In this document: positions 5,391 through 39,254 of the stretch, piece by piece
Layout of the letters: every line of letters starts with the position of its first letter
Position numbering within the stretch: position 1 is the first letter of the stretch
Assembly (NCBI RefSeq): GCF_036971445.1
Contig: NC_091470.1
Location: 55,738,001-55,802,000, forward strand
Direction of reading: 5' to 3'
DNA length: 64,000 nt
From: Narcine bancroftii
Lineage: Eukaryota
Position numbers and translations under genes: made by a program
The notes under the pieces: generated by a model
Told to the model about the DNA's origin: nothing
Databases searched by the model: none
The model's input: only the letters and a program-made list of their open reading frames with translations

Positions 5391-5406
5391 TGATTGAATA
5401 TGAATC

Positions 5407-7681
5407 CAAAATTCTATCATGGCAGCTTAAGACAGAACAAACTAAGAGAATGGTATTGGCATCAAGGAAAAAAGACAAACAAATCACATATAATCCAACG
5501 GAGATTAATGAAAACTTCAGAGAATTCTACGAACAATTATACCAAACTGAAAACGAAGGGAAAGAAGACAAAATAGATGAATTTTTAACTAAAATTGAAC
5601 TAACAAAATCACAAATAGAGCAACAAAATAAATTAACAGAACCATTTGAAATAGTAGAAATACAAGAGATAATAAAAAAACTACCAAATAATAAAACACC
5701 AGGAGAGGATGGATTCCCAATAGAATTCTATAAAACATTTAAAGATTTATTAATTCCTCCCCTCCTGGAAGTAATCAACCAGATTGATAAAACATAAAGC
5801 TTACCAGATTCATGCAAAACAGCAATAATTACAGTAATACCAAAGACAGGGAAAGATCCACTTGCACCAGCGTCATATAGACCAATATCTTTACTTAACA
5901 CAGATTATAAGATAATAGCTAAACTATTAGCAAACAGATTAGCCGACTATGTACCAAAAATAGTAAATCTAGACCAAACTGGATTTATTAAAAAAAGACG
6001 AACAACAGACAATATTTGTAAATTTATTAACTTAATTCATGCAGTAGAAGGAAATAAAGCTCCAACAGTAGCGGTGGCTTTAGATGCAGAGAAGGCCTTT
6101 GACAGAGTAGAGTGGAATTATTTATTCAAAGTACTACAAAAATTCAGCTTACCAGAGAAATATATTAATTGGATTAAAGCATTATATAACGGGCCATTGG
6201 CGAAAGTGACAGTAAATGGATATATATCAAAACAATTTAATTTAAGCAGATCAACAAGGCAGGGATCCCCACTATCGCCCTTATTGTTCGCGTTAGCCAT
6301 AGAACCACTAGCAAAACTGATAAGAACAGAAAATAAAATAAAAGGGATAAAAATAAAAGACAAGGAATATAAAATCAGTTTATTTGCAGATGACGTTATA
6401 GTATACTTAACAGAACTAGAAATATCAATAAAAGAATTACATAAGAAATTGAAGGAATATGGAGAAGTGTCGGGTTACAAGATTAACGCAAATAAAAGTG
6501 AAGCAATGCCAGTGAATAATGTGGATTTCTCAAAATTTAAGAAAGAATCACCATTCAGATGGCAAATGCAAACAATACGATACCTAGGTATACAAATAAA
6601 TAAAAACCTCGGCCATCTATATAAACTCAATTATTATCCACTAATGAAAAAAATTACAGGACGACTTAGAGCATTTGAAAGACATACCACTAACACTAAT
6701 AGGAAGGATAAACTGTATTAAAATGAACATTTTCCCAAGGATACAATACCTATTTCAGGCATTGCCAATATGTATATTAAACTGCAAGAAATGGAGAATG
6801 AGGAAACAAATGGTAAAACTAAACAAAAATGGGAACAAGATTTAAATATAAAGATAAAGAAGGAAACATGGGAGAAGTTATGCTCTGGAACGATGAGAAA
6901 TACAATAAATATGAGGTTACGTATGATACAATATAACTTGATACACAGGCTATACATTACACCTCTAAATTTAAATAAATGGGATCCAACAGTATCTGAC
7001 AGATGTTTTCGCTGCAAAAAGGAAATGGGAACAATTCATGCAATCTGGACATGTGAGAAAATGAAAAAATTTTGGGAAGATCTAAACCAGATATTAAATA
7101 AAATCACAAAAAGCAATATACCAAAAAACCCAGAGATCTTCCTCCTAAGTAACATACAAAATAAAGAATTTGGACTTGATTTGGATGGTGCACAAAAAAG
7201 ATTTGTTAAGATAGCTCTAGCCGTAGCAAAAAAAATGTATTATGTCAACCTGGAAATTGGAAGATAATTTGAGAATACAACAATGGTATGTAGAAATGAA
7301 TAAATGTATTCCATTAGAAAAAATAACATATAATTTAAGAAATAATATTACAATATTTGAACAAATATGGGAGCCATACATGAAACACAATGGAGAAAAC
7401 CTACCGGGGACATCTACCACCTAAAATGACAGAAGAAGGGAATGAAAAGGATTGACTCAGTGAAAATTCTTGTTTGTTTTTATTGAGTGACAACATTGTT
7501 TTGACGGGTTTAATGTATCTTAGATTCTGAACTTTAAATGAATGGGAGGGGAGGTAGGGAGAGTGGGATGGGAAGTGGGGGGGGGGGGGAAGAAAACGAC
7601 ACTGTATATATTTGAAAAGGAAAATGTATGTATCTTGATCAATGTGGTTTATAGTGTGAAAAATAAAAAAAAATTAAAAAA
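5407..7681 (+). mobile_element. 5'-truncated L1-clade LINE (ORF2 RT and C-terminal domain, disabled)
   Basis: KTPGEDGFPIEFYK, YRPISLLNTDYKIIAK, ALDAEKAFDRVEW, RQGSPLSPLLF, LFADD and CFRCKKEMGTIHAIWTC; stop at 5795, frameshift near 6650, internal deletion near 6767; G-rich 3' UTR, AATAAA with poly(A) at 7662-7681; candidate TSD ATGAATC (5400-5406 / 7682-7688). Confidence 0.93.
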
Positions 7682-7764
7682 ATGAATCTTGGATTTCCAT
7701 ATGAACGGGAAGGCTGCTCTGGTAACTGACTGCAATAATGTATCATTAATATTGATATACTCAC

Positions 7765-7834
7765 TCATTTTTGGAATGAGGTCTACAGTAGCCCCTTTAA
7801 AAAAACAAACGTAGATCAATGTCCCTCTTTGTAT
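7765..7834 (-). CDS. DTD2: DTD2 exon 2
   Basis: TTTTGCAG acceptor and GTGAGT donor; 70 nt; IQRGTLIYVCFFKGATVDLIPKM; phases 0/1 fit exons 1 and 3. Confidence 0.96.
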
Positions 7835-8009
7835 CTGCAAAATAGGAAAATAACTATAAAATATCAACAAAATCCCCCACCCCCATGAAATTCAAGAGTA
7901 GCCGACCGGGTCGAGGGAAAACAATTTGAAACTGTTCCTCCACCCATCCGAAACTTGGAGCTGGTTCCCAAGAGCCTTAATGAAGGGAAAAGCTATCTCC
8001 TGTCGGAAC

Positions 8010-8099
8010 CTGAACGTATTCAGCCGCTCTGTCCCCTTCGGCCGGCTTCACCTGCAGCCGAGCCGAAAGACACTGCTGCAACATCACGCGAGCCGCCAT
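8010..8099 (-). CDS. DTD2: DTD2 exon 1 (coding part)
   Basis: ATG at 8099; [30 protein letters not shown]; donor CAG|GTTCCG; total CDS 486 nt = 161 aa. Confidence 0.93.
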
Positions 8100-12308: not shown

Positions 12309-14220
12309 TTACTTAAGTAACCGTCAATTCTACAATATAAAGTTATAAAAAAATACTTCAAGGTGAAACAGAACTGATTTTTTTTCCCATTGGAAATAGA
12401 TCTATTTACAATTTATGGATAAGTCATCCAAGTTGTTTGTTTAAACTGAAAATGCATTGTTTACCCAATCTGCAAAAGGTCATTCTTCCCCAAACTGGAA
12501 CAATTAGAATTTATACTCCAAAGCTCTTATATTTAACCTTTAAGTGAAACAATAGCTTCAAGTTTTCACAAAAAAACTTCCAACAGCAAAGGGTTAATCC
12601 TCCATGCTATTGAACAGATGATTCTTCACTTTACATTTTCTGTGACTTCAGTGGTTCTGGATAGTAAAAAAAAAATGAACAAAGAGGAATACCAACTAAA
12701 TATCATGAAATTAGAGTGATGCAACAGAACCTCCATTTACATGTGTGATTTTTAGTTCCGACTAATTGCAAAACATTTTTAACATTTGTGTCTGCAAAGA
12801 GATGACCAAGGATTGATAATGCAAGCAGAAACACTGTCATTTCACCAAAAATCAGTTAATATATTTTTCAGTTCAATCATGTTTGGGATCTTAATCTAGT
12901 TACAGTCATAGCAAGTTCAAAAAAAATTAACCACACAAGGATAAAATAAGCTATTTTCACTGATCATCTTCAGCCAATCATATTTAAAGGCTCTTAGGAT
13001 TTCATTTATGGGTGACTTAATTTGGACAGAACAGCTTAGCTGTAAATAATTAAAGCAAAATGAAGAAATGCATATCAAATTTGCATTCCAAGCAATTGTA
13101 TTTGTTTTTTTTCCAGGATAAATTATTTTAATTTTTTATCCAAAAGCCCCTGGGAGTTATTAACTTCTTGCTTATAGCAATGTTGGTATCAATTAATTTC
13201 ATAAAAGGTTACTGTCAAAATACATGCATCACAAATCAAATACATATCATTTGTGACTACTGCAACATGAGAATTACTCAACTTCTTACAGTTCTAATTC
13301 CTTACATTCCCTAAAAAATGACTTCAATGTTTAAAAATCACTTTTTTTTAAAAAAAATAGAAACTAAAATCTATTGCCCTGTTGATAACAGAAGATTAGC
13401 TTCTCCATTAAGGTAATGAAAGTGAAAAGCAAGACTCATATACATGTTTTGCAGCACAGAAAAGAGGAAAGAGTTCCTTCAGGCCATGTAGCCCTTTCTG
13501 AAATGCCTACAAAATCAGACAATACTTGAATGCACATGAAAACATTCACTCAATCACTCACAGTACATGGTATCAGGTCTCTTTTCTGTCCATGTCTCTC
13601 AACTGCCCTTGTAATAAAATTGTAAAATTTCCATTTATTTAAGCATTGTTAAGTGCATACATGTCCAGGTACTTATTACTTCAAAACCAACAGAATGAGA
13701 GACCTGGAATGCTACAGCAAATCAATTATATTAGTGTTTTAGAATAAGAGGAGAGAGAAAAAAAAAAACTGGACAGTGGATGATGCAAAATATTTTCCTT
13801 CAATATGATTGAAAAGATCACATTGGATCATTTTGATATCCACTGTGATGTATATCACCTCAAGCAGTTGAAATGCTTGGAACTGCACCTTCTTTAAGTC
13901 CTGCACAAAAACATAAAATGAAACTCTCGTATTAACTCAGTCTGTCGCAATTATTTCCATCTGATTTCACGATGGTTGAAAAGTGGATTAATTTTTTGCA
14001 TTAAACTTGGACCCCTGAAAAAATAGTTTACATTTTAGCTATTGTTCTCAATGACTTTTCCAAACAAACTTTTTTAACCATTCAACTTGTAAACCTCTGG
14101 ACAATGAAAAAATATTTTTGTTGTGAACCTGCAATGAGTCACATTGAAAAATTAACAGCAAACAAGTAAAAATATCCTACAAACTGTATAACTTTGATTT
14201 AAAGAAAGTTGAACAGTGAC

Positions 14221-14567
14221 CTAAAATATTTTCCTTTCTGTGATTTCACCTTCAGTAGCTGTAGATGTGGTAGGAAAGTCAGCCATATTGTGACCCATCA
14301 TCTGTCCCAGCATAAAAAGAACACGAGCTTCATGTTCTCTATCACTTTGCCTCATTCTTTCCTCCATTTCCATACGGAGTTGCTCAAGACGAGCAAAACG
14401 TTCCTCTGACGCTTCCATGTAACGGAGAAATTTTTCATCTGCAGCTTCACTGTATCGGATAAACTTCTCCATCATTCCATCCATGATGTCCTCCAGTGAG
14501 TGCTTCTTTGCTTTCTTCGGCTGAGGTGTAAATGGTAGAGATGAATGTGTACGCCTGACACGGGGAG
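14221..14567 (-). CDS. Myb/SANT-like (MSANTD/Harbinger-ORF1-like) protein, exon 2 (basic patch and coiled coil, includes stop)
   Basis: Acceptor TTTTTTTCCCTTTAG at 14568, phase 1 matching the exon 1 donor; (P)PRVRR...PKKAKKHSLEDIMDGMMEKFIRYSEAADEKFLRYMEASEERFARLEQLRMEMEERMRQSDREHEARVLFMLGQMM...KIF*. Confidence 0.85.
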
Positions 14568-15329
14568 CTAAAGGGAAAAAAAAAATACACAACATGTTTG
14601 AAACATGCCTACCTGGGCAAATAACCATGGAAAACTGAAAATAATTATTTTTCATGGAAGGAAATACACAAAATTCCAGGTGACGACAATAATTGGTGAA
14701 CACTTAAAGCTCATCCATTGCTGTAGGTCACCTTCAATTCAAATATCCAGAATATCAACCATCAGTGCCAAGACTCAGACTGACTGCTATTCAAACTTTC
14801 ATTGATGACTATGTAACCTCTAGACTGAGAAATTTCAATGTGTGCCTCTCACATTCTGCCATCCCATTTATTTTCAATTTCTAGGCTTTGTCTCATTCAA
14901 CAACTGTATGATTTGCTCAACCTATTAATTCTAAGATGTCTGCATTCCTCTTATTCTGTGCTCTTGATTACACCTGAATTTAATTGCTCCAACATTTGTG
15001 GCTAAGTTTTTTCATCTAACAAGATATTAACACTATTCATTTCTTTAAAATGCTCTTAAAAACAGCTTCCTGGATCAATACTGACAAACTTTACTCTATT
15101 TACACTCTGATGATATTCCGTGAGAAATGTAACATTTCCTTTATTAATGAAGCTCAATTTGCTTTTGTAATTAATAAAGTTTTACAATTGAATATCTGTA
15201 CTTAAGTTACAAATCTAAAAAAAAAGTATTTCAACTTGATTATGGTTCAGAAAACTTTAAAAAATGTCACTAAATTCAAAAGACAGCATCTGAAAGCAAC
15301 ATGAGCAACACAAGGCTCATGTGGCAGGG

Positions 15330-15825
15330 TATTAAAAAAAAATGACTGCATCAACCTTTCTGGTCAGCAATAACGATGCCTCCCTAACAGGATTGAGGAG
15401 AAAAATAAGGTGACACCAAAGAAAGCCTCATATTCCCCTGAAGAACAGGCATCCTGCATAGCCTCAGCTGAGGTGAGGAAGACCCTACCCAGGGTGAACC
15501 CACACAAATAACAATCCTAATTGGGTGCAGAGGACTTTGTGGCCCAGCTGCTGGAGATTGTAATGGACATCTACAACATCTCAGTGCAGCAGTCCTTTGT
15601 CCCCACAAGTTTCAAGGCAGCCACCACCATCTTGGTGCTGAAGAAAGTGACAGTAACTAAACTAAATGACTATGGCCTAATGGCACTGACATTTATGATC
15701 AAGTGCTTTGAGTGGCTGTTGTTGGAATGCATCAAAGTGCATCTTTCAGTTTGCCTACCATCCAAACTGCCTTGATCCTCTACTTTAACCTGACCCACCT
15801 AGAGAACAATGCCTCACATACAAGA
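15330..15825 (+). mobile_element. Rex1/Babar LINE RT fragment (N-terminal RT part)
   Basis: ORF 15521: DIYNISVQQSFVPTSFKAATTILVLKK...LNDYGLMALTFMIKCFEWL (family pattern PTCFK..IIPVPKK..LNDYRPVALT..MKCFERL). Confidence 0.8.
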
Positions 15826-18800
15826 CCATAAATACAGAATAGGCTATTCGACCCATCAAGTCTTCCACCATTTTCCCATTCAGTCCCACTGCCTGGCCGT
15901 CTCACCATAACCTTGGTACCCTGGCTGATCAAGAACCTATCAATCTTTACCAAAAGATACACCAAAAGATTTGGCCTCCACAACTGCCTATGGTATAAAT
16001 TCCACAGATTGAACTGCTTATTCATGCAGTGGCTAGCGTAGCTATTGGACATTAAAGTGACAAGAAATTTTGTCAATAATCCACCATGCTCCTGAAGGAA
16101 ATAAAAATCCAGTGAGCTTTGATAGCTATATCACAACAACCTCAGGACTTATTTTCCCTGTGCCATTAAATTTTGATTCTTGAGGAAAGTGCGAAATGGA
16201 GGGGGACAATACGAACTCCGCAAAATCCCACACTGCTGTATGAAGAACTCAGCACCGGCCACAGCCAGTTAATCAGATAACTATCACACTCACAGCACTA
16301 GCTAATAGTTTAAAGTGACCTATTGCCTGCAATGTAAGCCCCTCCCCAAGGAAACTGCACAGGACTTTTGGGTGTGCTCATTGCAGCATCCAGACTTATG
16401 CTGGAGCTCAGGCATTTAAAGATGTCCAGCCTTTGGCTTAATTTAATGCAATCCTTATCAGAAAAAAACTCCATCATTAGATAACACTAATTGAAACTTG
16501 TCAGATAAGAGAACAATCTAAGAGTGGTGATGCCTTCTGCCCGAGAAATAAAGAGGAAGCTGAGGCACCACTGAAACCCTGAATGAAATATGAATTTCCT
16601 TTAGGAATGCCAATGGGAGATGACGACAGGGATGATTGGCTATATCCAAGCGAACCAACACAGATTCTTGTTCAGCATTCTGACCCACCTCAGGGGTGAA
16701 ACCGATTCTGGAGACCCCACCCAGGACCCCAGAGCATACCTAATAAATATACCCGACCACCACTCTCATGGTCCACCACCTCGCCGAAATGTCTGCTTTA
16801 AGTGTGATGGAGAAGGACATTAACATTGGGAGTGCTCCTCCTTTGGAGAGGACAATCGCTGCCAGGCATCTTTTACTACAGATAATCCCTTCTGCCAATG
16901 ATCTGAGGAGGGGCCAGAGGTCCACACCACCTTCCCCTGAGTAACATGAGGAAGGAGTGAGGAACCTAGAGTTACAATGAAGGTGCAGGATGTCTCTCTT
17001 CCATTTTTGATTGATACAAGAGCAACTTTACAAGAATTCTCACAGGGAGCATTGACCAACATCTCAAGAAGTCCATGGTACCTTGCAACACCATCGTCAG
17101 CAAAATACTGAAGTATCAGAGGAGGTATGGTCAGCATCACCATATAAGGTAGGATAAACCAACTCAACTACCTTCCATACCACCTTACATCAGTCAGTAC
17201 AAGTATACATCCAGCATTCAGCGGCAGCTCTCCTGAAGTTCAATCAAACAGGCCACATGACTCGAGCATGTTTGAGCCACTATGAACTTTCTCTTTCAGT
17301 AAGCACGTATCTGATCTTCTACAACTTCACTACTGTTATCTTGGCAGCCTTCATAACACCACCTCCAGATGAACTTGAAGAGCTAGATTATGATTGTTTG
17401 CAGCATAATCTTCTTTTGACTTCTGGCACAACAAGATTTAATAGACAGTCCCATTAATGGAGCTCTGACTTGGTTTGATGATGGGTCAGCTTTTGTTGAT
17501 GATACAGGTCAACACTGTTCAAGTTATGCCATTGTCCAAAATACAGATGAGATAATAAAGGCAGCTGCCTTCCACCATTCAGTCTGTCCCAGCAATCTGA
17601 ATTTTTTGCCCTTATTAGAGCCTACAAAATAGGAAAGGGAATATCATTTAATATTTATGCACTGGGAATAACTTACACAGATGCCACTGCAAAAGCTGCT
17701 GTTATAAACGGTCCCTTCACCATTTTTCAGAAAGAGATAAACTGGTTATAAACAGAACAGTCTTGTCTGATACAGGGGATGTAATACAACTTCAGAGGAA
17801 CACCCCTACTAATTTGATTAAGGTCTGGAAACAGCAGGGTGTGCCAGGGATCCAGAAATTGAATTACGAACACTCCTGCTGAACAATTTATGTACCTAAT
17901 GCATTTTTTAAAAACTGTACTGCTTAATTACATACATGAAATAACACATTTGGGTATGGGAATGGTAGGAGTGGCACACCAGTTTGAGAAAAGAGGCACA
18001 AAGTAAGGCACAGGAATGTATTATCTGTCAGCAACATAATCCTGGTAAAGCAATCAAGTGTCCTCCGGGTAGGGCATGAATGACTATCATTTGAGTATAT
18101 ATAGATTTTACAGAATTGCTTAGAGTAGCTATAAGTATTGTTTTGTTATTATTGATCTACCTCATGTCTTGGAAAAAAAGCTGAGGCAAATTTATATTCT
18201 TATTAATATCCACATTATAAATGTACAAACTTGGATAAAGGTATAGCATTCTCCATGAACGAAGAAAGCGATCAGTGATACAGGGCAAATTCAGAATTGT
18301 TGCTACTTGCTATTAATAGGTTAGTTAGGGTTTTTGATTATACATCAGTGGTACTATGTGTTCTTGCAAAGAACCTTCAAAAACAGTGCAATTTAGAACA
18401 TTTTATCCTCAGAACAATTTAAGTAAATATGGCAGATGTTTTGGCAATGAAGAATATGCATTCAATATTCCCAAATTCAAAACTATCTCTAGCTCCCAAA
18501 TTAATGTAAACTTAAATAATTTACAAGGAGACAAGACTGCAAACAGGCTGGTTGCAGCTCTTTGGTTAATTGAGAGCTTAAATACGACTATTACATCTCT
18601 ATTCATTTACTTCCTCTGGGCTTAAATATTATAATTTTTTAAAAATAAATTTAGCATCTACTGATTATTTTAATAATAGCTTAAGAAGATATCAAGGCTT
18701 ATTGGCAGTGATCCCCTGCTGGTGCTGATGCAGCCTTGACGTTACAAGACCTGTAATCATATACAAGCATAGGACAAATCTCAGCAGAAAAATTGTTTTG

Positions 18801-19215
18801 TATTTCAAGTTCAAGTTTGAAAGTCAACATCAGAACTTCATTTTTATGGCATTCAGTTGATCATTATACTGTGAAGCTGTTTGACTTGGAGTATCTTCAT
18901 TACATTTTAAATTCATTTTTTGATTTTCCAGCTTTATTTTTAAAGTCTCAATCTGCTCCAGATAGGTTTTGAGCTACATACAAAAGGGAAAAAAAAAAAG
19001 TTGATTAAATTCTGGGGACCTACCCAGAAGAAAGAGGAGGACAATACAGAGGTATCGGACGGAATTCGGCCAGGAGACACCCACGGCCGTAAAGGTTAAG
19101 GAGGAACCTCGGTAGATACATCACACCTACTGTAAAAAGATTGGCCCTGGAAAAAGTCAGCATGTTGCATCAGAGGACAAGCCAGAGCCTAGATCAGGCT
19201 CCTGAATGGCAAAAA

Positions 19216-20332
19216 TGAACAATGGGTGTATTTAAAGGTATTTTTGGCTTTGTTTTGGGACTCTTATAATGACTAATTTGATGAATGAGAATGAGAATTC
19301 AAATCAGATAGCTAAACGGGAATGGCATAGCCCAAATGTATGTTGAAACTATGAATTTATCTTACTGTCAGATCTGTAGTCATGTACCAACCCATAGTAA
19401 TCAAGATATTCCTATGGTAGCTATACCCTTTAATGATACAGAACATATAGCATGGAGCTGTCACTCCAACTGGACTCTGAGGGTTATACTGGCAAACATA
19501 TGTCAACCCACTATACATCGGTTTATTAATTGGTACAAGCCAAAATATAACCTGTCCATACAGCCCCTATATTAAATGCTGAACAAGTTCACCAAGGGAG
19601 GCACTTGTCCATGTAGAGGAGACTAAAGTAGATCTGGAACGGACTATTGCACTAAAGAAAGTACTGTAGTCAATTTGGCCATTTTATGGGGGATGCAACC
19701 TTAAATAATACCTATCTTTGTGATGAATGAAAAGCATATCCATGATAACCTATCTTATCCCAGCTATGTGGCATTTTGAGGATATTACTGACCATCCTTT
19801 GGTTGAATAAAAAGAACCATTTCTGAGACAAAAGTTTTTTATGATTCCATTTCCTCAGTATGATACTGCTAAGGCAGCCCGAGAATTGATTAATATGGCC
19901 AGTGCCCTAGAAAAGATTACCAATCAAACCACAAGGATTGAGAAAAACACACAGACCCAAATTTGCATCTCACCAATGAAGTGGTGGCCATATGAATTGT
20001 GGTCTTACAAAACCATTTAGATTTTGTTTTACTTCTAGCAGAAAAAGGTGGAACATATGCAGTTGTGGGACAAGAATGCTGTATGTGCATCCTTGATGCT
20101 TCATAAAATATCATTCATTTAGCAGAACACATTAGAGAACAGATACATGAAGTACAGAAAATTCCACAATTACAACCTCAGGGACCATCTTGGTGGCCAT
20201 TTAAGGGATGGTAGACTACATTTATCCAGCGATTATGTGTCCTATCTATCATGCTACTGATAGTGTGGCTTTTGCGATTCTTTTATTTGATTCATGTCTT
20301 AAAGATGTCTTGTTACAAAGGATTATCATGAC
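19216..20332 (+). pseudogene. ERV env remnant (SU CxxC, furin site, ISD, CX6CC remnant, TM)
   Basis: CQICSHVP at about 19365; [CGA>TGA]-IKR|TISE at 19804; ISD from 20005; GGTYAVVGQECC; hydrophobic LCVLSIMLLIVWLL; multiple stops and frameshifts. Confidence 0.85.
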
Positions 20333-20439
20333 AGATCATAGTGTAGTTTCATTTTGCTTTTTTCTTTAATAGTAGGGCATACAAACAGACTCCAAATAGT
20401 AGGGCATTTGAATGGACACCAGAATGTTAGTGTGGTGGT

Positions 20440-20810
20440 CCCAACGCTTCTGTATGCATCGGAAACCTGGACAACATCTGAAGGCACTTGAAAAGTTCCA
20501 TCAACGCTGTCTTCGTAACGTCTTAAATATCAGCTGGGAAGATAGAAGAACTAAAGTCAGTGTGCTAAATGAAGGAAAAACAACAAGCATTTGAAGCCAA
20601 CAGATGTGCAGAACTAGAAGAAAAGAGAAGTAAATGAAAAGAGAGGCAGCAGCAACCAAAGTCCAATCTGCCATCTGGAACTACCTGTCCTGAATGCGGA
20701 AGATCTTTCAAAGCCAAGATTGGACTCAGAAGCCACTTTAGAGCCCATAAATAGGTCAACGGAATGAAGTCCATAATCCTCGACCTCAAGGGATAGCCAT
20801 GACAACAACA
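20440..20810 (+). mobile_element. RTE-clade LINE fragment inserted between env and the PPT
   Basis: LKALEKFHQRCLRNVLNISWEDRRT and CPECGRSFKAKIGLRSHFRAH. Confidence 0.8.
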
Positions 20811-20875
20811 TAAAGGGAAAATAAACCATATTGTAATACTCATTAATTATCATAAAATGATAAAAGGAAGGAATA

Positions 20876-21321
20876 TGAAAGAATAAGTTTTACGAATATA
20901 CTTTAAAAAGGGTTAATGGATTATGTAAGAAAATACAGTAGCAGCTTGTGCAATTGTGAGAACATAACTGCCTTCTTAACATCTGTGCCAGAGTGAGATA
21001 GTCCCCAACTTCACAACAATGTCTATAAACCTTGGGTACAAAATACTAATATTTCTCAGACACTTCTAGACATCACAGGATAACATGTTATTGTAAATAC
21101 AAAATTGTCAGGTGTGAAACTTCAAAGGATCTCATGCAGACCCCTGCCCAAAATGTGTATAAAAGTTCGATGAACACTCCATGGCTTTGAGTTGGGGTTC
21201 AGTGTAGAGAACAAGTTACTAAATTAATTCTCTTATCTCCCCCTTAGTCCCGCTAGTGTTACCAAGGTGAAATAAAGAAGCTGTTGTATGCTTAATTGGT
21301 TCTGCTGTTTGTTTTCTTACA
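20876..21321 (+). mobile_element. ERV 3' LTR
   Basis: Preceded by PPT AAAAGGAAGGAA (20862-20873); termini TGAAAGAA...TTCTTACA (7/8 inverted match); TATAAAA at 21158; AATAAA at 21271. Confidence 0.8.
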
Positions 21322-21334
21322 TCATGGGCTGACT

Positions 21335-22110
21335 TTTGTCTCCTGCTCACTGAAAATCAACATAAGCACACCTCAAGGACGCATGCTTAGCACACAGCTC
21401 AACTCACTCTGTGACTGTGTGGCTAAATACAATTCAAATGCTATTTGCAAATTTGCTGATGACATCAGGATTGGCAGCAGAATCACAGATGGCATTGAGG
21501 AAGTGTACAGGAGGAAGATAGATCAGTGAGTTGTGTCACAACAGCAACCTTGCACTCAACGTGAGGAAAACTAAGGAGATAGTAGAACACGAACTAGTCT
21601 TCATCAAGGGGTCAGCAATGGAGAGGGTCAAGAACTTTAAATTCCTCGAGTCTCCATGTTGATGCAATCACGAATAAGGCTCACCAGTGACTATACTTTG
21701 CGAGGAGTTGGAGGAGCTTTGGTATGTCACCAAAGATTCTTGGAGACTCTCCAGGTGTGCCATATTACTCTCTGGTACAGAGGTGCTAATGCTCGGGACA
21801 GGAAAAAAAAACTCCACTTGGCCTGCGACATAATGGGGACCAGACTTCACTCCATCGAGGATATCTACAATAGGCAATGTCAAGAAAGTAGCCTCTGTCC
21901 TTCGGGAGCCTGAAGACAAGCACTCAGCAGCACAAAGACATTCCAATTTCTGAATGAATAATGAACCCAAGACACTTCGTCTTTTTTTGCTCTATTTCTT
22001 TAAATTTATTTTGAAATATGGTTTATATAAATGTTTGCACTGTGACGCTGCCTCAAATCACAAATTTCGTGATTTGTTCATGACAATAAATTCTAATTCG
22101 AAACTTGAAT
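21335..22110 (+). mobile_element. Rex1/Babar LINE 3' part
   Basis: STPQGRMLS...DCVAKYNSNAICKFADD; 3' tail 'gacaataaattctaattc'. Confidence 0.8.
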
Positions 22111-23204
22111 CTCCACCTCAAAAACACGGTCACAAAACCACCACCTCACTGGTCAAAACATTTTCATCATCAACAAGACATTTTATTACGAGTTAAAATT
22201 AAACGAATCCAACACAATCCAAGTCAAAATAGCGTTCCAAAAATATTGCTGCCCTCCAGCGTATCCAAAAGTGCTCTGGAACGATCCTACAAGCATTTTC
22301 GAAAACACCTCCCAACCAATAGCAAAACTAAGGCACATTAGCTCCTCAAATTTCTCCTCCAAGGTTACACAACACTCCAGTTTATAAACATCATTCGTTC
22401 ACAGTCAATAAATTCTGACAGCATTGTGGAAGACACAACGGCTCGCCGCCCCTATCGAGAGAAAGAAGAAAACATAAAAGTGCATATTTTTTCTTCATAC
22501 CCATGTGAATAATATGCAAAAATTAAGCATACTAAATTGGAATTTATTTACTTAAAGTGACCACTAATATTCTTCTGTACAAGGTCCCCGTTTCAAAATT
22601 TAAACTTGAACAGCAGTGATCCAGTAGTTTTCGAGTAACGCTCAAGCCTTTCATCGTCCCATCTACAGACTCAGTACAAGTAATTGCTTCAACTGAACCC
22701 CATTTAGTGCTTAAGTTCCCAAGTTCATCGGAATTTAGAACACTACAATCATGTTTTCAGCTCGGTTTACAACGGGCATACGATAAAGAATGAAAACAAT
22801 CGTTTAAAATACTTGCAAAGACAAGAACACGGTCAAAAGTATTATTTAGTATCACGGATGATCGTCAAGTTGGATTTTCAATTTTTTCTTTTGAGAGTTC
22901 ATATTTAGAAATCTAAAAGTTGAGAAATTCAAAGTTGCCGCGTAGTTGTGAACCAAAGAACTGAAGCCTGTGCAATTAAAAACGAAATGATTGAGCTGAT
23001 TGTTTACACGTTGAGTTTATTGCAACTTCCGTGACAGTTGAAACACAATTGTTCCCCTTCCCACGCAAAATTTTCTGATAACTCATTGAACATCTAAAAG
23101 GATTAAAGCATTTCACTAATTCCTTACTTCGAGAAAAGACAGTATTCCCCATTTGGAATTGACATTAAGCTCACTCTGAAAGCGACAATAACTTAAATTC
23201 TTAC

Positions 23205-23733
23205 GACAGAAAGCACTGGTAGAGGGTTGAGGCTCAAATGGCCGGTTGATGGTCTCCCCCATCGAGTGATCGGGCTCCTCCGAGGAACAATGGCCATTGC
23301 GGCATTCAACTCTTTGGCTGATATCGGAGTGCGGGCTGCTGTGCTCCTCCTTCACGTCTCGCGACTCACTGGGGGTCGCGATCGCGTCCATGACTACAGG
23401 CCGTTCATTGGCAGCTCGGGAACCGAGCACAGCATCAAGTTGCTCGAAGAAGCGGCAGATCTTCCTCCCACTGGCGCTGCAGCCCTGCCTGATGCTGTCC
23501 TTGGCCAGCGTGTATTTTCTCTTCAGTCCCTTGATGCGGATGCGGCACTGCTCCGGGGTGCGGATGTAACCCTGGTCCAGCAACTGCGACGAGATGAACT
23601 TAAAAACGTGGCTGTTCCTCAGCTGCTCGTCCAGAGCCGTCTGCACATTCTCCTCACTCCAGACCGCGATCAGCGCCAGGGTCTCGGACTCCGACCACAG
23701 GGCGCCGCGTTCAAACCTCGCCTCTGACATCAT
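23205..23733 (-). CDS. Myb/SANT-like (Myb_DNA-bind_4, trihelix-type) DNA-binding protein, exon 1
   Basis: MMSEARFERGALWSESETLALIAVWSEENVQTALDEQLRNSHVFKFISSQLLDQGYIRTPEQCRIRIKGLKRKY...CRFFEQLDAVLG; donor C|GTAAGA at 23204; joined to exon 2 gives 876 nt / 291 aa; an in-frame upstream ATG at 23901 would add 56 aa. Confidence 0.9.
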
Positions 23734-24169
23734 TGGAAAGCCGGCGCCCGGCGGCCCACACTCTGCGGCGGGGGGGGGGCACCCCAGCCCACTTTTTTCA
23801 CCAACAAAAAGGATGGAAGAAACAAAACAAACTGCCCTCCATGATTGAAACCATCGGATCACTCGAGAGGCCCCTTCAAATTTGCCCCCTCTGAGAACCA
23901 TGGGTAGATGTTGGCGTCATCTCCACTTCCGGGCATCGGCGGGCCCGGCACCTCTGACACCAAGCTCCAGCATGCCGACGGTGAATGGTGGTGGGTGGCA
24001 GCTTTGCAGAGCTACCCACTTTGCGGCTCGGCGATCATTAATGAGCTGAGGCGAGGACAAACACTCATGGCAAGGCCTGTCTTTTGTGGTCCTGGCCGTC
24101 GCCTTCGAGTGACGCGGTGAGGAGGCGGGGCGAGTGCGCGTGAGGGCGGTTGGTGGGACCAGTGGGTGA

Positions 24170-24247
24170 ATGGCGCAGCTGTGCGGAGCCGGGAGGCGTC
24201 ACGTCGGGGCTCGTGTGGCCGCACTTGCTTCTGCAGCGCGTTTTTGG
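24170..24247 (+). CDS. NUBPL: NUBPL candidate exon 1 (putative mitochondrial targeting peptide)
   Basis: ATG at 24170 gives MAQLCGAGRRHVGARVAALASAARFW (Arg-rich, no acidic residues), ending at a phase-0 GTGGGT donor compatible with exon 2; not alignable by eye and alternatives exist. Confidence 0.4.
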
Positions 24248-24789
24248 GTGGGTGCCATCGCAAGGTCCATCTCTGTTGGTGGTGTGCTGTGTTTTTATTT
24301 GAGAGCGCAGTTTAGTGACTGCTGAGATGTTCTCGCATCCAACCTGTATGAGACAATGGCTCCCAACTCCAGTTGTCATGTCCTGATAGATTGGGTGGAC
24401 CATTTGAGCAGATCACTTTGTTTAGTGTTAGTTCTGGGCTTTAATGGATGGGATGCAGTGGAATCCGTTTCTAGTCGTGCTCTTCAGCTTGCCTCTTCAG
24501 CAAGACGCGAGAGATGTGTCCTCGATTCCCTTATACTTTATCAAAACATGAGTGTCTTCTCTATTCCTCTATGTGTCTGCGTCTTCAAAGTATGTCTTGG
24601 AAAATCATCATCTCAGGATCTAGTCAGTTCTGTGTGGCTTCAAATTGAGTCAAAGTTGTTCATTTTATTGACCCATGAACTGAATTGAATAGGACTGTTG
24701 AAGGTTCAATTCAGAGTGGGCAATTTGTACTTGGGCAAATGTTTAAGTTGAAAATGACTTCGTGATCAGATGCATCTGACGTCCTATTC

Positions 24790-26487: not shown

Positions 26488-26635
26488 TCTTCAGGATCTA
26501 GTACTGAATCACTCCAGGAGAGACAAAAACGAATGATGGCACGGGGACTTCCAAAGCAAAAAGTAATTTCTGGAGTGAAACAAATTATTGTTGTAGCCTC
26601 CGGAAAAGGAGGTGTTGGAAAATCAACCACTGCAG
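26488..26635 (+). CDS. NUBPL: NUBPL exon 2 (deviant Walker A motif)
   Basis: 148 nt; [49 protein letters not shown]; AG/GTATG boundaries. Confidence 0.95.
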
Positions 26636-27758
26636 GTATGAAGGATACTTGATGTTAACAGATTTTTTTTACAATTTGTCATTTATGATTTCTAAAATGT
26701 TGAAGGGGAGTAGCATTCTTTATGCTGTAGATAATGCAACATTGTTTGGAATGAGAGCAAGCACAACTGTCTTTGAGTTGCAAAATCAAAATTGAGCAAC
26801 TCTGGCACCGAAGCCCTGGACTTCAAAGCCTTAATCCGGGGGTCATTCCCTCCTAATGTCGTGTCTTGGGCTTTTATGCATTAATTGTCTCCCCCGTGGG
26901 TCCCTTTAACTGTTTGGCAGTAACAGCTTATTTATGGCACTTGGGGGCTTCTTGCACTTTATTGATCAATCCTTTCACCCGACAATACTTAAAACCCAAG
27001 ATTTCCCCTGAATCTCCCTTTCTCCCTTGATCAAGGCTTCTTTCCGCACCCCCCCCCCCCCCCCCCCCACCCTGGGTTCCCTGAACCATATTCCAAAGCT
27101 CTATCTGAACCAACTACCCCATCCCCTCTGTTTCCCCTTCAAGATACACAAAAAAAGAAAAATAAGAAAAAAGATTATTGCCTTGTATTTTTTCCAAACT
27201 CTGTTATTGTAATGTCCTGATGTGCTTAAAAAATACTACCAAAATTCAAATTCATCAGTTTTATCAATTTTACATAAATATCTGAAGCACTTTAGTGATG
27301 TCAGTACATTAAAGCTGTACTAGAGATGAAGTGAATGTTTCCATTGGTTTGTTGACCAGTTCTTTTTATGCTTTCTGAAATTCTGCCACAACTTTAAAGG
27401 TCACAAAATTAATAAACAGAACTGCAATTTCAGATACAAAGCTTTCAGTTGTGTTATAAGTTAAATTGCAGCATCCTTCTTGCCTCTTGTCAGGTTTCTT
27501 CTTCATACATATCCACATTGAGGCTTCATTTCTCTGCACTTGTAGAAAGGGAAAAGTAAATTAGTAAAAGAGCACTTGAGGTTGATCACCTGAAGGTGTT
27601 TATTTTTTGAATTGGGGAGCAGAAAGGGAGAGTAGAGATGGGTAAAATGTAGGTTTGTTTTGGCAATGAAAGTTTCAAGATGCTTGGCTCATGTTTATTT
27701 GAAATTCTGGAAATAAAAAATGGTATAAAATGCTAATCCAACTTTATTTAAATTTCAG

Positions 27759-27793
27759 TGAATTTGGCTCTGGGATTAGCAGCCTATGAATTG
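27759..27793 (+). CDS. NUBPL: NUBPL exon 3
   Basis: 35 nt; (V)NLALGLAAYEL; tttcag / gtaggt. Confidence 0.93.
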
Positions 27794-27976
27794 GTAGGTT
27801 GACATTTTGTGGAAACATTGTATGAAACAAAATATTTATGTGCAAATTGATACCTGTACTGTAACTTGAAATTTTAGCAATAAAACTAACAATTGTACTA
27901 ACATTGTGTTGTTAATTTGTCATAGCAAAAAAATTACAAGACTGCTAAACCCCATTTAAAATATCATTTTCAAATA

Positions 27977-28217
27977 CAGTAAAACCCAGGTATCTAGCAC
28001 CTATGGTGATTGGCAGATGCTGGATAAGCGTGTTTTCTGGTTGCTTGAGACTTCATGTAGCGTGAATGGAGAATTACGAGAAGACATGCCAATTTTAAAT
28101 TTTTGTATTTTTAACCCATTTATTCTCTGCATGCTATTTATCTATTTATTAATTTATTTAATGTTGGAGCGGGGTGGTTGCCGGTTATTTGAATTCTGGA
28201 TAACAGGGATTTTACTG
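27977..28217. mobile_element. Tc1/mariner (Tigger/pogo-like) MITE
   Basis: TIRs CAGTAAAACCC / GGGATTTTACTG flanked by TA on both sides; related inverted copy at 56264-56493. Confidence 0.8.
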
Positions 28218-28289
28218 TATAATGTGGAATTTCAGAAGGCAATAAATGCTGTTTTTGTATCCACATATATAATGAATGTTTGCATTAAA

Positions 28290-28537
28290 TTTAGACATAC
28301 AGCACGGTAACAGGCCATTTCAGCCCATGAGTCCATGCTGTCCAATTTACACCCAATTAACCTACACCCCCAGTATGTTTCTAACAATGGGAGGAAACTG
28401 GAGCCCCTGGGGAAAACCCACGCAGACACGGAAAGAACGTACCAACTCCTTACAGACAGTGCTGGATTTGAACCAAGGTCCAAATCATTGGTGCTGTAAG
28501 GGCGTTGTGCTAACTGCTACACCAACCGTGCCACCCT
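28290..28537 (-). mobile_element. tRNA-derived SINE (HE1/V-SINE-like)
   Basis: Minus-strand head GGTGGCACGGTTGGTGTAGCAGTTAGC (A-box) and GGTTCAAATCC (B-box); same family as 52758. Confidence 0.8.
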
Positions 28538-28789
28538 AAAGAATGACAACTTTTTCTTGATGTAGTTAGTAGGTATTTCTACTGAGGTGCTGGGAAGAAT
28601 TGATCCTGTATGGATAAATCTGAGATTGTGTTTACTCTTTCATTCTCCAAAATCATTCATGACTCTTCCTTTTCTCTCTAGATTCTTTGAAAAACAGTTG
28701 TCTTCCTTTTCTTGTGTATCTGAAGAAATCTGTTTCATTTAGTTGGTCCATGGCTTTGTGCATGAATTTTAATTTGATGCCTAAAACAA

Positions 28790-30225
28790 ATGTAGTGTAG
28801 CAGAGGTTCAAGAGCCTGACAGCCATTGAGGGGGGGAAAACTGTTCGAAAGCCTGGAGATACTGGACTTCAGGCTTCATTACCTGATTCCCAAAGGCAGC
28901 AGTGAGAAGAGGTTATGACCAGAGTGATGGGGTCTTTGATGATGTTGGCTGCTATCTTCAGGCAGCATTTCACATAGATTTCATCAGTGGATAGGAGATC
29001 AGAACCTGAGATGATTTAGCTAGATTTGTTACTTTCTACAGCCTTCTGCATTCCTGGGCACTCGAATTACCAAACCAGGCAATGATGCAACTAGTCAGAA
29101 CATGTAGAAAATCAAGAGAATGCCAAATCTCCTCAGACTTCTTGGAAAGAAGAGGTATTGGTGTGTCTTCTTAACAGTTGCTTATTGCTGGTTCCAGAAG
29201 AGGTCTTCTAATGTATGGACTCCATGAACATCAAGGTATGAACCCTCTGCATCTCCAACCCTTCAATGCAAACAGGTGCAGAGTCTGTCAATTGAAAAAT
29301 CCACAATATGCTCTTTGGTCTTATTAACATTGCGAGTGGGATTGTTCTGACATGACACAATTAGATTCTTGATCTCCATCCTGTGCTGTGACTCATCATT
29401 TCCCGTTGTTCGGCCCACTTCAGTGGTGTTATCAGCGATTTATAGGTTGCGTTGGAGCAAAACTTGGCAATGTAATCATAAAGAAAAATGCTGGAGGAAC
29501 TCAGCAGGTCTTGCAATATCCATAGGAGGTAAAGGTATATAACCAACATTTTGGGCACAAGGTCTTCTTCAAGGTATCATATGTATATCTTTACCCCCTG
29601 TAGACACTGAGAAATCTGTTGAGTTCCCTCAGCATTTGTGCTTTTTCACAGCTTCTGGAGACATTAGTGTTTTACTCAATGTAGCCATGAGTGCAGAGGA
29701 AATAGAGCAATGGATGAAGCATGCATCCTTGAGGTGCTCCTGTGTTGATGGACAGTGAGGAGGAGGTAATGTTGCTGATCTGAACTGAAGGGCACTCAAG
29801 TTGATGAGGAAGTCAAGGATCCCGTTCTAGAGGGATGAACGGTCCCCAGATCCCTTAAGTTAATAATAGTTTTGCTGGTGTTGAATGTCGAGCTATGATC
29901 AATGATCAACAGCTTTGTGCAGATATTCTTATCCAGATAATGTAATAGAGTGTTGGGCCAGAGAGATGGCATTTGCCATTGATCTGTTGTAACTAGAGGT
30001 GAATTAAAGTGGTTACAGTTCCTCCTTCAGACTGGTAGATTTGCTTCTTACAAACTGCTCAAAGTACTTCACGATAGAAGCAAGTGCCAAGGACTGATGG
30101 TCATTGAAGCAGACCAGCTTGCTCTTCATGGGCATTAGTATGATGAATGTCCTTTGAAGCAGGTGGGGGACCACTGACCGTAGCAGTGAGAGGTTGAAAA
30201 TGTCGGTTAAAAACTTTACCCACAC
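28790..30225 (-). mobile_element. Rex1/Babar LINE fragment with a short Penelope-derived insert (about 29480-29680)
   Basis: ORF 30013-30237: LTDIFNLSLLRSVVP...LVCFNDHQSLAL; insert 'aaaatgctggaggaactcagcagg...ctgttgagttccctcagcatttg'. Confidence 0.7.
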
Positions 30226-31558
30226 AAACCTAAACACAAAAACAGAAGTTTCTGCAATACTTGCACCTTCGTTAGCTTTACCACATCTTTCTGAGAGATG
30301 AAGTTGGGGTATTTAACAGCAAGGTGCCAATCAGGAAAAAAGTTGTCATCCTTTAAAGCAGGCATGACTTTTGTATAGCTGGGTCACAAAACATTTTCTT
30401 AAATTCCCTATTATAATGAAAATGATGGGGTTTCCCAGTCCTTTTGGTGAAAACTGACCACATCAGCGTATTTACTTTATAAAGTTTTAAATCACTAAGT
30501 TAGCATATCACTAATCATGTTCACATTTATTGGACAATTATTGGTGCTTTCAGGATCTGAACAGTTAGAGAGAATTTTATTTCAAAGGTAGTTTAAGATG
30601 TGAAAATTCAATCTGAATGTAAATTTTAAGATGCTGTTTGTTACCATGAACAGGATTGGTAACCCCAGGCATGCAAAGAGAAAGAAAGAGGAAATTTACA
30701 AACTTTAAAAATCTCTATCAGGATAACATTTTAAGTTCCTCCAAGCAAACTCCTCTGACCATGCACCCACATAAAGCATGAATGTGCATAATCTTGTCCA
30801 TGTCTGTTCCTCAGCCATACTCCCTGCAATAATTCTTCCTCACAACCTGTTTACACTCCTCTCCGACCCATCACCAAAACCACAATTTTTCCCAAAGTGA
30901 GACAGTTTCCCAATCTGTGGTTGTTCTCCACATTCACAGTACCTATGCCACCTGAACCATCTATCCTATAGAAAAAATGGTAGCTGCAATCAAGAAATGA
31001 ATGTGGCCAAAATGGCAGCAGCTGAGTTGCATTGTATTTTCTGAATGCTTCAGAGGATTATTCCTCTTCCATCCTTAGGCAAACTCTGTGACTCAGCGTG
31101 CCCTGTCACCAATTATAGTTTAAGCACTACCATTTTAAAGTGTGAGTACATTTTTTAATAATCTCTGATACAGAAATTTAATTTTGTGTGTGGTCTTCTC
31201 ATTGCTTTATTTTATTCCCAACATTTTAAAAAATGCTATAGATTTTTTAAGAAACTTGTCTTTGGTCCATCAGCCCCAATTTTCTTTACATCTTTCTTTT
31301 TGTTTAAGATTAATAACACCTCTAACCTCTTACTTATTGCCTTACATTAAGGATTTTTCAAACTGATTGAGATATTGTTATTTGTCCTTTTCACAAGGTT
31401 CCTTGATTCCTGTAGAGGGCGTAATGCTATTTTCAACTGATAACCACAAATCAAAATGTAAAATCTTGCATGTGTCCTTAGTTTGCTGTTGACAGCAGAA
31501 TTCAATGTTGTCTAATTATTATACTGCAATTCAATATATTTTTTTAAAAATCTTTAAG

Positions 31559-31643
31559 CGAGTGGGGCTGCTGGATGCAGATGTGTATGGTCCTTCTATC
31601 CCACGCATGATGAATCTGAAAGGAGCCCCTGCTTTAACGGACA
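31559..31643 (+). CDS. NUBPL: NUBPL exon 4
   Basis: 85 nt; [28 protein letters not shown]; ctttaag / gtaagt. Confidence 0.9.
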
Positions 31644-32778
31644 GTAAGTTTTCTAAATTTAATTTTGAAAATCTGAATACGAGGCAAAGTTCTGTGTTGT
31701 ATCATAGAAATAAAATAAAATGATTAGAAGGAAAATGCAAGAAATTGCAGATGATGGATTATGGAGCAAAATATCATTAAAATGGAAAAGGACGAGAACG
31801 TGACTAAAATAAAGGTTGGCTGAAGCAGACCTAGTAGCCATTTTCTCTTATCATTATTGCTGGTTGAATTATTTTGTGGTCACTTAGCCAAAAATTTGCA
31901 TCAATCAGCATCTTTGTACTTTCACAATCTGGACTGCAATGGTTCAAGAAAATAGCTGGTCCTCATTTTTAAGGCCAACAGGGCAAGGGAAAAACATGGT
32001 CATTATGTTTGCAATACTTGTATCAATTGAATTAATGCATTTTTTAATATCTGGAGTTGTTAATCACTTCATTTAAAATGTGATGGGAATAGATATATTG
32101 TGTTGTAGCTGTTGAAGATATTTATTTTTTAGTTCTTGTCATTTTAGTCTCTATTTTGGAATATTATCTTGGACTATTATGTCATGTCTTTTACTTGAGC
32201 TTGAAGCAATTAGGCATTGAACTCAAGACTTGGCAGAATAGTTCCAAATAGACGTAATGGTGAGAGCTGGTGCTGCCTGATTCCTAAAGTACTCTGAGAA
32301 CAACTTCATTTGTACGCTTTGAGTTTAATTAAACTTTTTGATGTTAAAGTGTGTGAGTGATTTTCCTCTTGTTCTCTACTGCTGATGTTGCCACTACAAC
32401 CTGTCATCATGAACTTGGCGTTGCATCAGTCATCAATGCTGGTACTTGTTACTTCTGGCCTTAAATAATAACATTCATAGCAGTTCATTCCAATTGGACT
32501 ATGACTTATCACTATTGAACAATTCATAAGTATCTCTGGTGAAAAGCCATTGTTTGATTTTTTTAAAAATCTCTGACCTCTTCTTAATTTGTTCCATAAA
32601 AGCTTTTAAAAATGCCTTTTCCCACCCTTTTTGCTCTTGGCCAATACAAAGTGTCTGCTTCTTCGTAGCATTATGCAAACTTACGTTTGCCTTTTTGTGG
32701 ATGGGGTGATGGATGTAGATTATTACAGTATTAACATTCTGCATACAAAGTGATTATTGTACTTTTTCCCTTCAAAAG

Positions 32779-32818
32779 GAAACTTGATGATACCTTTGGT
32801 AAATTACGGAATTAATTG
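32779..32818 (+). CDS. NUBPL: NUBPL exon 5
   Basis: 40 nt; (R)NLMIPLVNYGIN(C); aaaag / gtaagc. Confidence 0.93.
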
Positions 32819-32925
32819 GTAAGCATTTTCTATTTGGTGATATTCCATCTTTGTATTAGTGAATTAATAATTCAAGTATGAAATAAGGTGTGAATTTGGT
32901 TTTTTTTTGCCTATTCTCTTGACAG

Positions 32926-39212: not shown

Positions 39213-39254
39213 GTACAGAGCAAAATTAAAGATCTCTTTGGCATTAAGTTGTAG

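Follow-up and report, generated by a model that had tools for sequence, protein, structure and literature searches.

A Harbinger-type Myb/SANT gene of cartilaginous fishes, single-copy and at the NUBPL promoter in Narcine bancroftii, probably domesticated separately from an NAXD-fused relative

We analyzed a 64,000-nucleotide stretch of the Narcine bancroftii genome (the window; NC_091470.1, positions 55,738,001 to 55,802,000) and found that the Myb/SANT gene between DTD2 and NUBPL (the window gene) is real and spliced, and that it adds an undescribed cartilaginous-fish member to the regulators already known to descend from transposons. The best explanation, to which we assign a probability of about 0.58, is that a Harbinger Myb reading frame at the NUBPL promoter became a gene for a nuclear adaptor and was domesticated separately from a relative fused to NAXD.

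Gene structure and transcription

The two-exon, minus-strand model put forward in an earlier sequence-only reading (phase 1, 291 codons plus stop; Table 1) was confirmed, and all protein motifs that reading had claimed were found in the 291-aa product. The exact joint of 14567 to 23205 was present in contigs of four of four runs, all from one study and termed probable RNA here because their RNA nature is a guess. This joint skips 8637 nt, reads CT..AC on the plus strand, and was matched in the gene models of orthologues. The exon 2 acceptor consists of a pyrimidine tract followed by TAG. Contig depth was greater over exon 1 than over the intron, part of which (22063-23204) also occurred in unspliced contigs; the longest stop-free frame in the intron is 116 codons. 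Downstream of the stop codon, AATAAA signals were found at 13639 and 12308, and upstream a spliced contig extended the 5′ UTR to 24168 in one run. An in-frame upstream ATG at 23901, absent from the earlier reading, was also observed; its 10-residue frame (23901-23872) recurs in sawfish and whale-shark models, an indirect sign at most that the gene has the same genomic position in other species.

Table 1. Positions of the window gene and its flanking features
Feature	Position	Strand	Remarks
DTD2, flanking gene downstream, same strand	2658..8099	-	PF02580 at 2658-2981 (last exon)
3′ UTR	13000..14220 (≥1.2 kb)	-	contigs unbroken from 14567 to edge of examined stretch, 3 of 4 runs
Coding exon 2	14221..14567 (347 nt)	-	encodes basic patch, long helix, and acidic tail; stop codon TAG
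72-residue helix, aa 201-272	14281..14496	-	11-residue repeat, three units from 14475
PKKAKK basic patch, probable nuclear localization signal	14503..14520	-	assigned from sequence
Intron	14568..23204 (8637 nt)	-	GT-AG, contains repeat fragments
Coding exon 1	23205..23733 (529 nt)	-	encodes the start, Myb/SANT domain, and Ser/Pro/Glu linker; phase 1, donor GTAAGA
Myb/SANT-like trihelix DNA-binding domain, aa 13-101	23431..23697	-	PF13837; helices at pLDDT about 90 in model
CpG island common to window gene and NUBPL	23251..24500		contains 5′ UTR and upstream in-frame ATG 23901
NUBPL exon 1, probable coding part	24067..24116	+	GTGAGG donor after 24116; start codon uncertain
NUBPL exons 2 onward, partial flanking gene	26502..39217	+	PF10609 matches at 31556-39217

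The window gene and NUBPL stand head-to-head and share a single CpG island. The NUBPL start lies within about 400 bp of the window gene start codon, an observation that the earlier reading lacked. Contigs of three runs ceased to match at 24116-24117, and two of them carried about 1 kb of further sequence; the P-loop exon of NUBPL lies at about 26502-26635. A loose contig end at 24559 was rejected as a splice, being a chance 19-nt match to the NUBPL exon at 39.1 kb. On the other side, the first exon of the downstream neighbor lies on a CpG island (ATG 8099); we take this gene to be DTD2 rather than DTD1 from its NUBPL neighborhood. No form fused to DTD2 was seen among proteins of 160-510 aa, longer forms being covered by a search clustered at 50%, and no joint to DTD2 was present among the contig joints listed.

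Protein domains and helix

The Myb_DNA-bind_4 profile (PF13837; cut-off 27 bits) matched with a score of 69.3 bits over residues 13-101, in which W13, W25, and Y74 are conserved, and it was the only family that Pfam found in a full-length orthologue; SCAN, KRAB, and C2H2 zinc finger domains were not detected there. The sole solved relative by sequence was the Arabidopsis trihelix factor GT-1 (PDB 2EBI, 2JMW; E 4.8e-4), which Foldseek also ranked first (probability 1.00, E 0.083); at 24% identity to the window protein it serves as a fold analogy only. The PKKAKK patch was unchanged in 16 of 16 aligned orthologues. The helix matched itself at a lag of 11 residues 16 times, compared with 5.2 in shuffles, and none of 2000 shuffles scored as high. 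A predicted homodimer of residues 192-275, modelled without an alignment, scored 0.01.

Distribution and conservation

Orthologues were found in 19 named chondrichthyan species, including the chimaera Callorhinchus. Against 11 orthologues, 91-94 of 98 residues were identical in the domain, 78-79 of 79 in the block of basic patch and helix, and 47-61 of 70 in the linker, and identity to the chimaera protein ranged from 72 to 100% by region. This near-absence of change across all cartilaginous fishes argues for an important function. The earlier suggestion that the gene is possibly chondrichthyan-specific fits all searches, in which bony-vertebrate proteins reached at most about 54% domain identity; word seeding and clustering at 50% make the searches blind in a band of some 50-60% identity, and since word-seeded searches missed the NAXD-fused family described below, a bony orthologue in that band could likewise escape. 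The gene is indeed unnamed in print, as that reading had it, but for many sharks RefSeq has models of it, with five labels that do not agree.

Harbinger origin

The window gene is single copy in the genome, where no set of near-identical copies with terminal inverted repeats was found and the next-best matches were 52% (partial) and 41% identical. The reported lack of a nearby transposase also stood: of 1405 candidates, 150 were scored, and no DDE_Tnp_4 match among them lay in the window. A separate, local transposase profile gave one weak match at about 41 kb, which was traced to a LINE frame contaminating that profile. Likewise, 100 inverted repeats were listed in 9-30 kb, and none of the 25 longest resembled a pair of transposon ends enclosing the gene. 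The single copy, the splicing, the extreme conservation, and the lack of a transposase together support the earlier proposal of a domesticated Harbinger-type Myb reading frame.

The domain corresponds motif for motif to the Myb reading frame of Harbinger-1_DR, with about a third of residues identical by eye (PMC9179366, supplement), and belongs to the same trihelix subtype. It also matched 11 copies of a Harbinger family in this genome (E 2.5e-5 to 7.8e-4), and a convergent transposase match lay beside 6 of them. Mollusc and unnamed transposon-like proteins carry both the domain and the helix, and transposon-like relatives have the basic patch as well; the domain identity of transposon-like rows reached 48-49%, compared with 50-54% for the NAXD family. 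A direct parent family was not found. Unlike the Harbinger reading frame, the window gene has no transposase and no terminal repeats, is present in one copy, and is fixed throughout the chondrichthyan radiation. According to PMC9179366 and PMC9392472, the Myb proteins of Harbinger elements bind both the transposase and DNA.

In these respects the window gene resembles MSANTD1-4 and NAIF1, vertebrate genes domesticated from Harbinger Myb-like reading frames (PMC9392472), which are likewise host genes in single copy that encode one trihelix Myb/SANT domain and lack a transposase, and its product is similar in size to MSANTD1 and 3 (275-345 aa for MSANTD1, 3, and 4; PMC9392472). By description rather than by tree, it differs from them in its restriction to cartilaginous fishes, its DTD2-NUBPL locus, and its two coding exons, and it is absent from the genes described in PMC9392472.

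NAXD- and ACCS-fused relatives

No orthology to an already described MSANTD gene was found. The nearest relative occurs in bony vertebrates, where it is fused to NAXD and carries no name, and it makes relocated orthology a live rival that the sequence-only reading had missed. We found no description of this NAXD-fused Myb/helix gene in the literature searched. The family spans RefSeq NAXD isoforms of bichir, gar, teleosts, coelacanth, and amphibians, and includes birds and an elephant 'ZSCAN29-like' protein. Its members share with the window protein the domain order and the 11-residue helix repeat, with one repeat unit fewer, and are 35-41% identical to it in the basic and helix block. The NAXD-fused gene occupies another locus and splices into the enzyme gene, whereas the window gene terminates in a stop codon and UTR of its own, and no fusion of the latter was seen in protein (160-510 aa) or contig searches.

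The window gene and the NAXD-fused family were sisters in two trees (SH-aLRT 85 in a quick tree inference; 88/95), with 3 of 43 rows dropped from the two-domain tree. A tree joining the window gene to the ACCS-fused family instead was not rejected (p-AU 0.097), and from these sequence comparisons we hold the sister relationship with moderate confidence. The two were also reciprocal best matches: a bird NAXD-family member searched against this genome retrieved the window gene first (91.8 vs 53.8 bits). The window gene lies on C5 and NAXD on C16, where it was located with a protein stretch, a Pfam NAXD search of the genome having given no match; no Myb match was found in 80 kb near this NAXD, while controls were found at E 1e-38. 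The ACCS-like Myb/helix N-terminus (lungfish, anole, teleosts; C1:274.57 Mb in this genome) has the same architecture and 40% domain identity to the window gene, is common to cartilaginous and bony vertebrates, and is joined to an aminotransferase in the latter.

Weighing the explanations

We somewhat favor separate domestication over a relocated orthologue because the stem branches are long and the loci differ. A single jawed-vertebrate domestication, followed by relocation and fast evolution on the stems with the same function retained, is the most serious competitor and clearly the less probable. The reciprocal best matches speak for it, as do the sister position in both trees, where no transposon row separates the two, the shared two-exon plan, and the complementary presence of the two genes, with no chondrichthyan name among 120 listed of 257 NAXD-family matches and no Myb at this genome's NAXD. 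The phase-1 linker intron is no marker of orthology, since the ACCS-fused gene has it too. Such orthology requires a gene move and two stems that, though short, took up about 0.7-0.9 changes per column (0.38 + 0.33 for the window gene and the NAXD family), although each crown has changed only slightly (chimaera-ray 0.04; coelacanth-gar 88% identical) and the control, the ACCS-fused gene, accumulated 0.04 over the same ray-lungfish split, across which identity is 92% for that gene vs 53% for window gene and NAXD family. Separate capture, for its part, lacks the support of an intervening transposon row, since the searches turned up no transposon family nearer to the window gene than the NAXD-fused one.

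It is improbable that the jawed-vertebrate ancestor already had the gene at the DTD2-NUBPL locus, with certain bony vertebrates keeping it and mammals losing it. In mammals GPR33 now occupies the interval, and its presence there in human, stated in the earlier reading, is confirmed by PMC7667465. MSANTD1, 2, 4, and NAIF1 do date to the jawed-vertebrate base (PMC9392472), and the blind band of our searches could hide such a gene; however, no such bony-vertebrate protein appeared in word-seeded or 50%-clustered searches, and the observed constraint predicts well over 60% identity in gar or coelacanth, compared with 75-92% for the ACCS-fused gene. Slightly less probable still is a main role in transposon defense, in which the protein would bind and block Harbinger ends or transposases rather than regulate host genes. 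A Harbinger family, now decayed, does persist in this genome, which yielded at least 150 matches to transposase, but the Myb of that family is just 26% identical to the window gene, an arms race would not leave the protein almost unchanged since chimaeras diverged, and the elephant shark keeps the gene though Harbinger is undetected there (PMC9179366).

Several RefSeq labels would make the window gene the shark MSANTD2, ZSCAN29, or ZKSCAN2, which we consider very improbable; the MSANTD2 label is probably wrong. Apart from the names, this identification can draw on 52% identity between the first 60 domain residues and a gene at C17:92.81-92.85 Mb of this genome. That gene, with its split Myb domain and long last exon, fits MSANTD2 better, and we presume it to be MSANTD2. 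Its Atlas score of 0.85 as MSANTD2 is a lead only, its last exon retrieved unnamed chordate clusters at 0.92, and a Pfam family search of the genome for SIAE (MSANTD2 synteny) gave no match. MSANTD2 has four exons and 559 aa (PMC9392472), against two coding exons and 291 aa here, and the Pfam results argue against ZSCAN29 and ZKSCAN2. A recent or active transposon copy, for which the domain type alone speaks, is refuted by the single copy, the lack of transposase and ends, and 90% protein identity to the chimaera.

Proposed history and function

Under separate domestication, an ancient PIF/Harbinger Myb-like reading frame would have landed at the NUBPL CpG-island promoter before the split of chimaeras from sharks and rays. 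Its transposase and ends would then have been lost, leaving a host gene transcribed divergently from NUBPL, and the NAXD-fused Myb/helix gene would be a sibling transposon copy at a different site, each copy kept in one lineage. A role as a nuclear DNA-binding adaptor seems likely: the protein may enter the nucleus via its basic patch and bind a specific DNA motif through the trihelix domain, while the near-invariant helix might recruit a partner, be it itself, a chromatin complex, or a dead HARBI1-like transposase. The protein would thereby act as a transcription or chromatin adaptor comparable to NAIF1, MSANTD3, and plant HDP2/ALP2.

A bolder version, which we regard as speculative and rather unlikely, would have Harbinger Myb siblings captured at the housekeeping promoters of NUBPL and NAXD, in cartilaginous and bony vertebrates respectively, and the window helix pairing in trans with a dead HARBI1-like transposase that cartilaginous fishes kept. 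Sharks and rays would then possess a chromatin module of their own, resembling ALP1/ALP2 and HDP1/HDP2 of plants, with further captures at ACCS in both lineages and at PAICS in a whale model. Three intact frames of catalytically damaged HARBI1-like transposases were found in this genome, one of them at least 90% identical across sharks and rays; no Myb match lay within about 10 kb of the three.

Significance

Published surveys of Harbinger-derived vertebrate genes began with human proteins, so that lineage-restricted members were invisible to them, and few lineage-specific regulators are known in cartilaginous fishes. The route of Harbinger domestication is already well known, and the present gene is useful to specialists rather than very surprising. 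With it, a wider undescribed set comes to light: the Myb/helix exons at NAXD, ACCS, and PAICS, together with the dead transposases of sharks and rays. Around C1:281.53 Mb of this genome, no PAICS exon was found within 50 kb; the Myb/helix exons at PAICS were observed in a whale model.

Gene Model and Protein Architecture

The gene between DTD2 and NUBPL is a real, undescribed member of the known class of domesticated Harbinger Myb genes. Re-deriving the exon bounds, splice sites and phase reproduced exactly the two-exon model of the sequence-only reading, and the phase-1 join of both exons gave an open reading frame of 291 codons plus a stop. The predicted 14567/23205 junction was present in contigs of all four runs, which belong to a single study and whose RNA status is the tool's guess. 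The 3′ UTR ran beyond 13000 in contigs of three of them. Unspliced contigs also crossed the exon 1 donor (22063–23204), at approximately half the exon 1 depth in three runs and lower in the fourth. A transcript that keeps the intron would yield a protein with the Myb domain alone; RefSeq includes truncated isoforms of a similar kind in sharks.

The Myb/SANT assignment was borne out by a Pfam Myb_DNA-bind_4 match (69.3 bits, residues 13–101). The AlphaFold2 model comprised a helical domain (residues 15–107), a disordered linker (109–193) and a single 72-residue helix (201–272). The sole solved relative is the GT-1 trihelix domain. The long helix contains an 11-residue repeat, with 16 self-matches at lag 11 vs 5.2 in shuffles (0 of 2000 shuffles as high). 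No SCAN, KRAB or zinc finger was found in the full-length orthologue by Pfam search.

Locations of features (window positions unless a contig is named)
Feature	Location	Strand	Remark
Exon 1	23733–23205	minus	donor GTAAGA at end
Exon 2	14567–14221	minus	preceded by pyrimidine tract and TAG
LINE retrotransposon fragment	5333–7264		broken frames
LINE retrotransposon fragment	11149–11814		broken frames
LINE retrotransposon fragment	40739–41128		broken frames
LINE retrotransposon fragment	63174–63869		broken frames
HARBI1-like frame L050	C22:67.24 Mb		
HARBI1-like frame L051	C5:178.35 Mb		
HARBI1-like frame L052	C23:66.67 Mb		

Genomic Setting

The gene is followed downstream by DTD2, which is also on the minus strand, and NUBPL is arranged head-to-head with it. 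The NUBPL donor at 24116 is the point where contigs of three runs cease to match; its P-loop exon lies near 26.5 kb and later exons at 31.6–39.2 kb. One CpG island holds the start regions of both genes, about 400 bp apart or less, and their 5′ ends likely overlap, as judged from contigs that carry no strand. An identical 19-mer in NUBPL intron 1 (24541–24559) and a NUBPL exon (39106–39124) is probably due to chance.

The available text of PMC7667465 agrees with the sequence-only reading that GPR33 occupies the human DTD2–NUBPL interval; no GPR33-like long frame was found in the corresponding interval of the window. The sequence-only reading had seen neither transposase nor terminal inverted repeats, and indeed no transposase match was found in the window (150 scored of 1405 candidates) and no such repeat pair around the gene among the 25 longest of 100 inverted repeats at 9–30 kb.

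Conservation and Naming

The gene is single in the genome, the next matches being 52% identical over 60 residues and 41%. Orthologues occurred in 19 named cartilaginous fishes, namely sharks, rays and, as one of the 19, the chimaera Callorhinchus milii, among the members listed (15 of 21 for the main cluster). At the sequence level, the protein is under strong constraint: across 11 orthologues, identity was 91–94 of 98 residues in the domain and 47–61 of 70 in the linker, and the basic patch and helix were identical at 79/79 residues in nine and 78/79 in two.

RefSeq labels this protein variously MSANTD2, ZKSCAN2-like, ZSCAN29-like, GT-3a-like or uncharacterized. It is probably not MSANTD2, which has 559 aa and four exons according to the available part of PMC9392472. 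The gene at C17:92.81–92.85 Mb (L032, L062 and L065) has an intron splitting the Myb domain and a final frame of 297 codons. The Atlas similarity search gave MSANTD2 as the lead for its first exon (0.85) and unnamed chordate clusters for its last. This gene is the probable true MSANTD2 of the genome, a name that we partly presume; no match to a synteny marker for it was found in the genome. Atlas also listed GIY-YIG-like clusters (0.91) for its last exon.

Literature searches, mostly outside subscription journals, found no publication on the gene or on its NAXD-fused relative described below. NUBPL, DTD2 and shark are not mentioned in the text of PMC9392472, whose supplement was checked by term search.

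Relationship to the NAXD- and ACCS-Fused Families

An exhaustive search of 1.84 billion protein representatives gave 2035 hits, and among the best 150 a gap separated chondrichthyan proteins from all others. The best outsiders among the matches listed (48–54% identity in the domain) represent a single gene of bony vertebrates (P0186–P0300), in which the exons for Myb domain and helix are spliced into NAXD; it occurs in bichir, sturgeon, gar, teleosts, coelacanth and amphibians, with members also in birds and elephants. No chondrichthyan member was named among 120 of 257 matches listed. A bird member used as the query returned the Narcine gene as its top match in the genome. The two were sisters in a 160-row tree built by a quick method (SH-aLRT 85) and in a two-domain tree of 40 of 43 rows (support 88/95); the alternative grouping of the Narcine gene with the ACCS-fused family was not rejected (p-AU 0.097).

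A single relocated gene would explain this sisterhood, and no transposon row falls between the two in the trees. However, the loci differ, and no Myb was detected in 80 kb around NAXD in the Narcine genome, where both controls were detected. The second Myb/helix gene of the genome (L027, C1:274.57 Mb), the counterpart of the lungfish ACCS-fused gene, provides a scale: domain identity was 92% for this pair vs 53% between the Narcine gene and coelacanth NAXD-Myb, and change per column across the same split was 0.04 vs stems of 0.38+0.33. The different loci and stem lengths therefore make relocation less likely than either a capture from each of two sibling transposon families or the reciprocal loss of old paralogues. 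Against such separate origins stand the missing transposon row and the fact that the word-based searches overlooked the NAXD family itself, so that a bony orthologue at 50–60% identity could escape them and hide in a 50% cluster of the exhaustive search. The ACCS-like proteins of this set, with the Myb/helix part at the N-terminus, are P0122, P0140 and P0162.

Transposon Origin

The domain matches the zebrafish Harbinger-1_DR Myb ORF in every motif, with approximately one third of residues identical by eye (PMC9179366, available text). Mollusc and unnamed proteins among the matches listed share the domain, basic patch and helix with the Narcine protein. The phase-1 linker intron is probably ancestral, because the ACCS-linked gene also has one, as read-through gene models suggest for the NAXD gene.

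The Narcine genome contains at least 150 DDE_Tnp_4 matches and a decayed Harbinger family (L005–L015) of 11 Myb matches with 82–89% DNA identity, six accompanied by a convergent transposase match; the Myb domain of one copy was 26% identical to that of the gene. The available text of PMC9179366 reports no Harbinger in elephant shark and proposes other species for checking. The NAXD, ACCS, NUBPL and PAICS cases suggest repeated capture at the 5′ ends of housekeeping genes. A further host-like Myb gene lies at C1:281.53–281.55 Mb (L034, L035 and L079), and its relatives include a sperm whale double-Myb protein fused to PAICS (P0317).

Proposed Function and Candidate Partners

As stated in the available parts of PMC9179366 and PMC9392472, Harbinger Myb proteins bind element ends and the transposase and carry the latter into the nucleus, NAIF1 has retained these abilities in concert with HARBI1, and in plants HDP2, ALP2 and SANT1–4 work for chromatin complexes. 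We infer that the Narcine protein is a nuclear adaptor, in which the trihelix domain would sit on DNA, the basic patch would drive nuclear import and the invariant helix would contact a partner protein.

Three intact, intronless HARBI1-like frames of 385–416 aa (mutual identity 45–51%) are candidate partners. By visual inspection, one or two of the acidic residues for catalysis are missing from each, and all three are candidate domesticated dead transposases from their sequences. No Myb match was found within about 10 kb of any of them in the genome. L050 is at least 90% identical across sharks and rays, in a cluster of 25 members.
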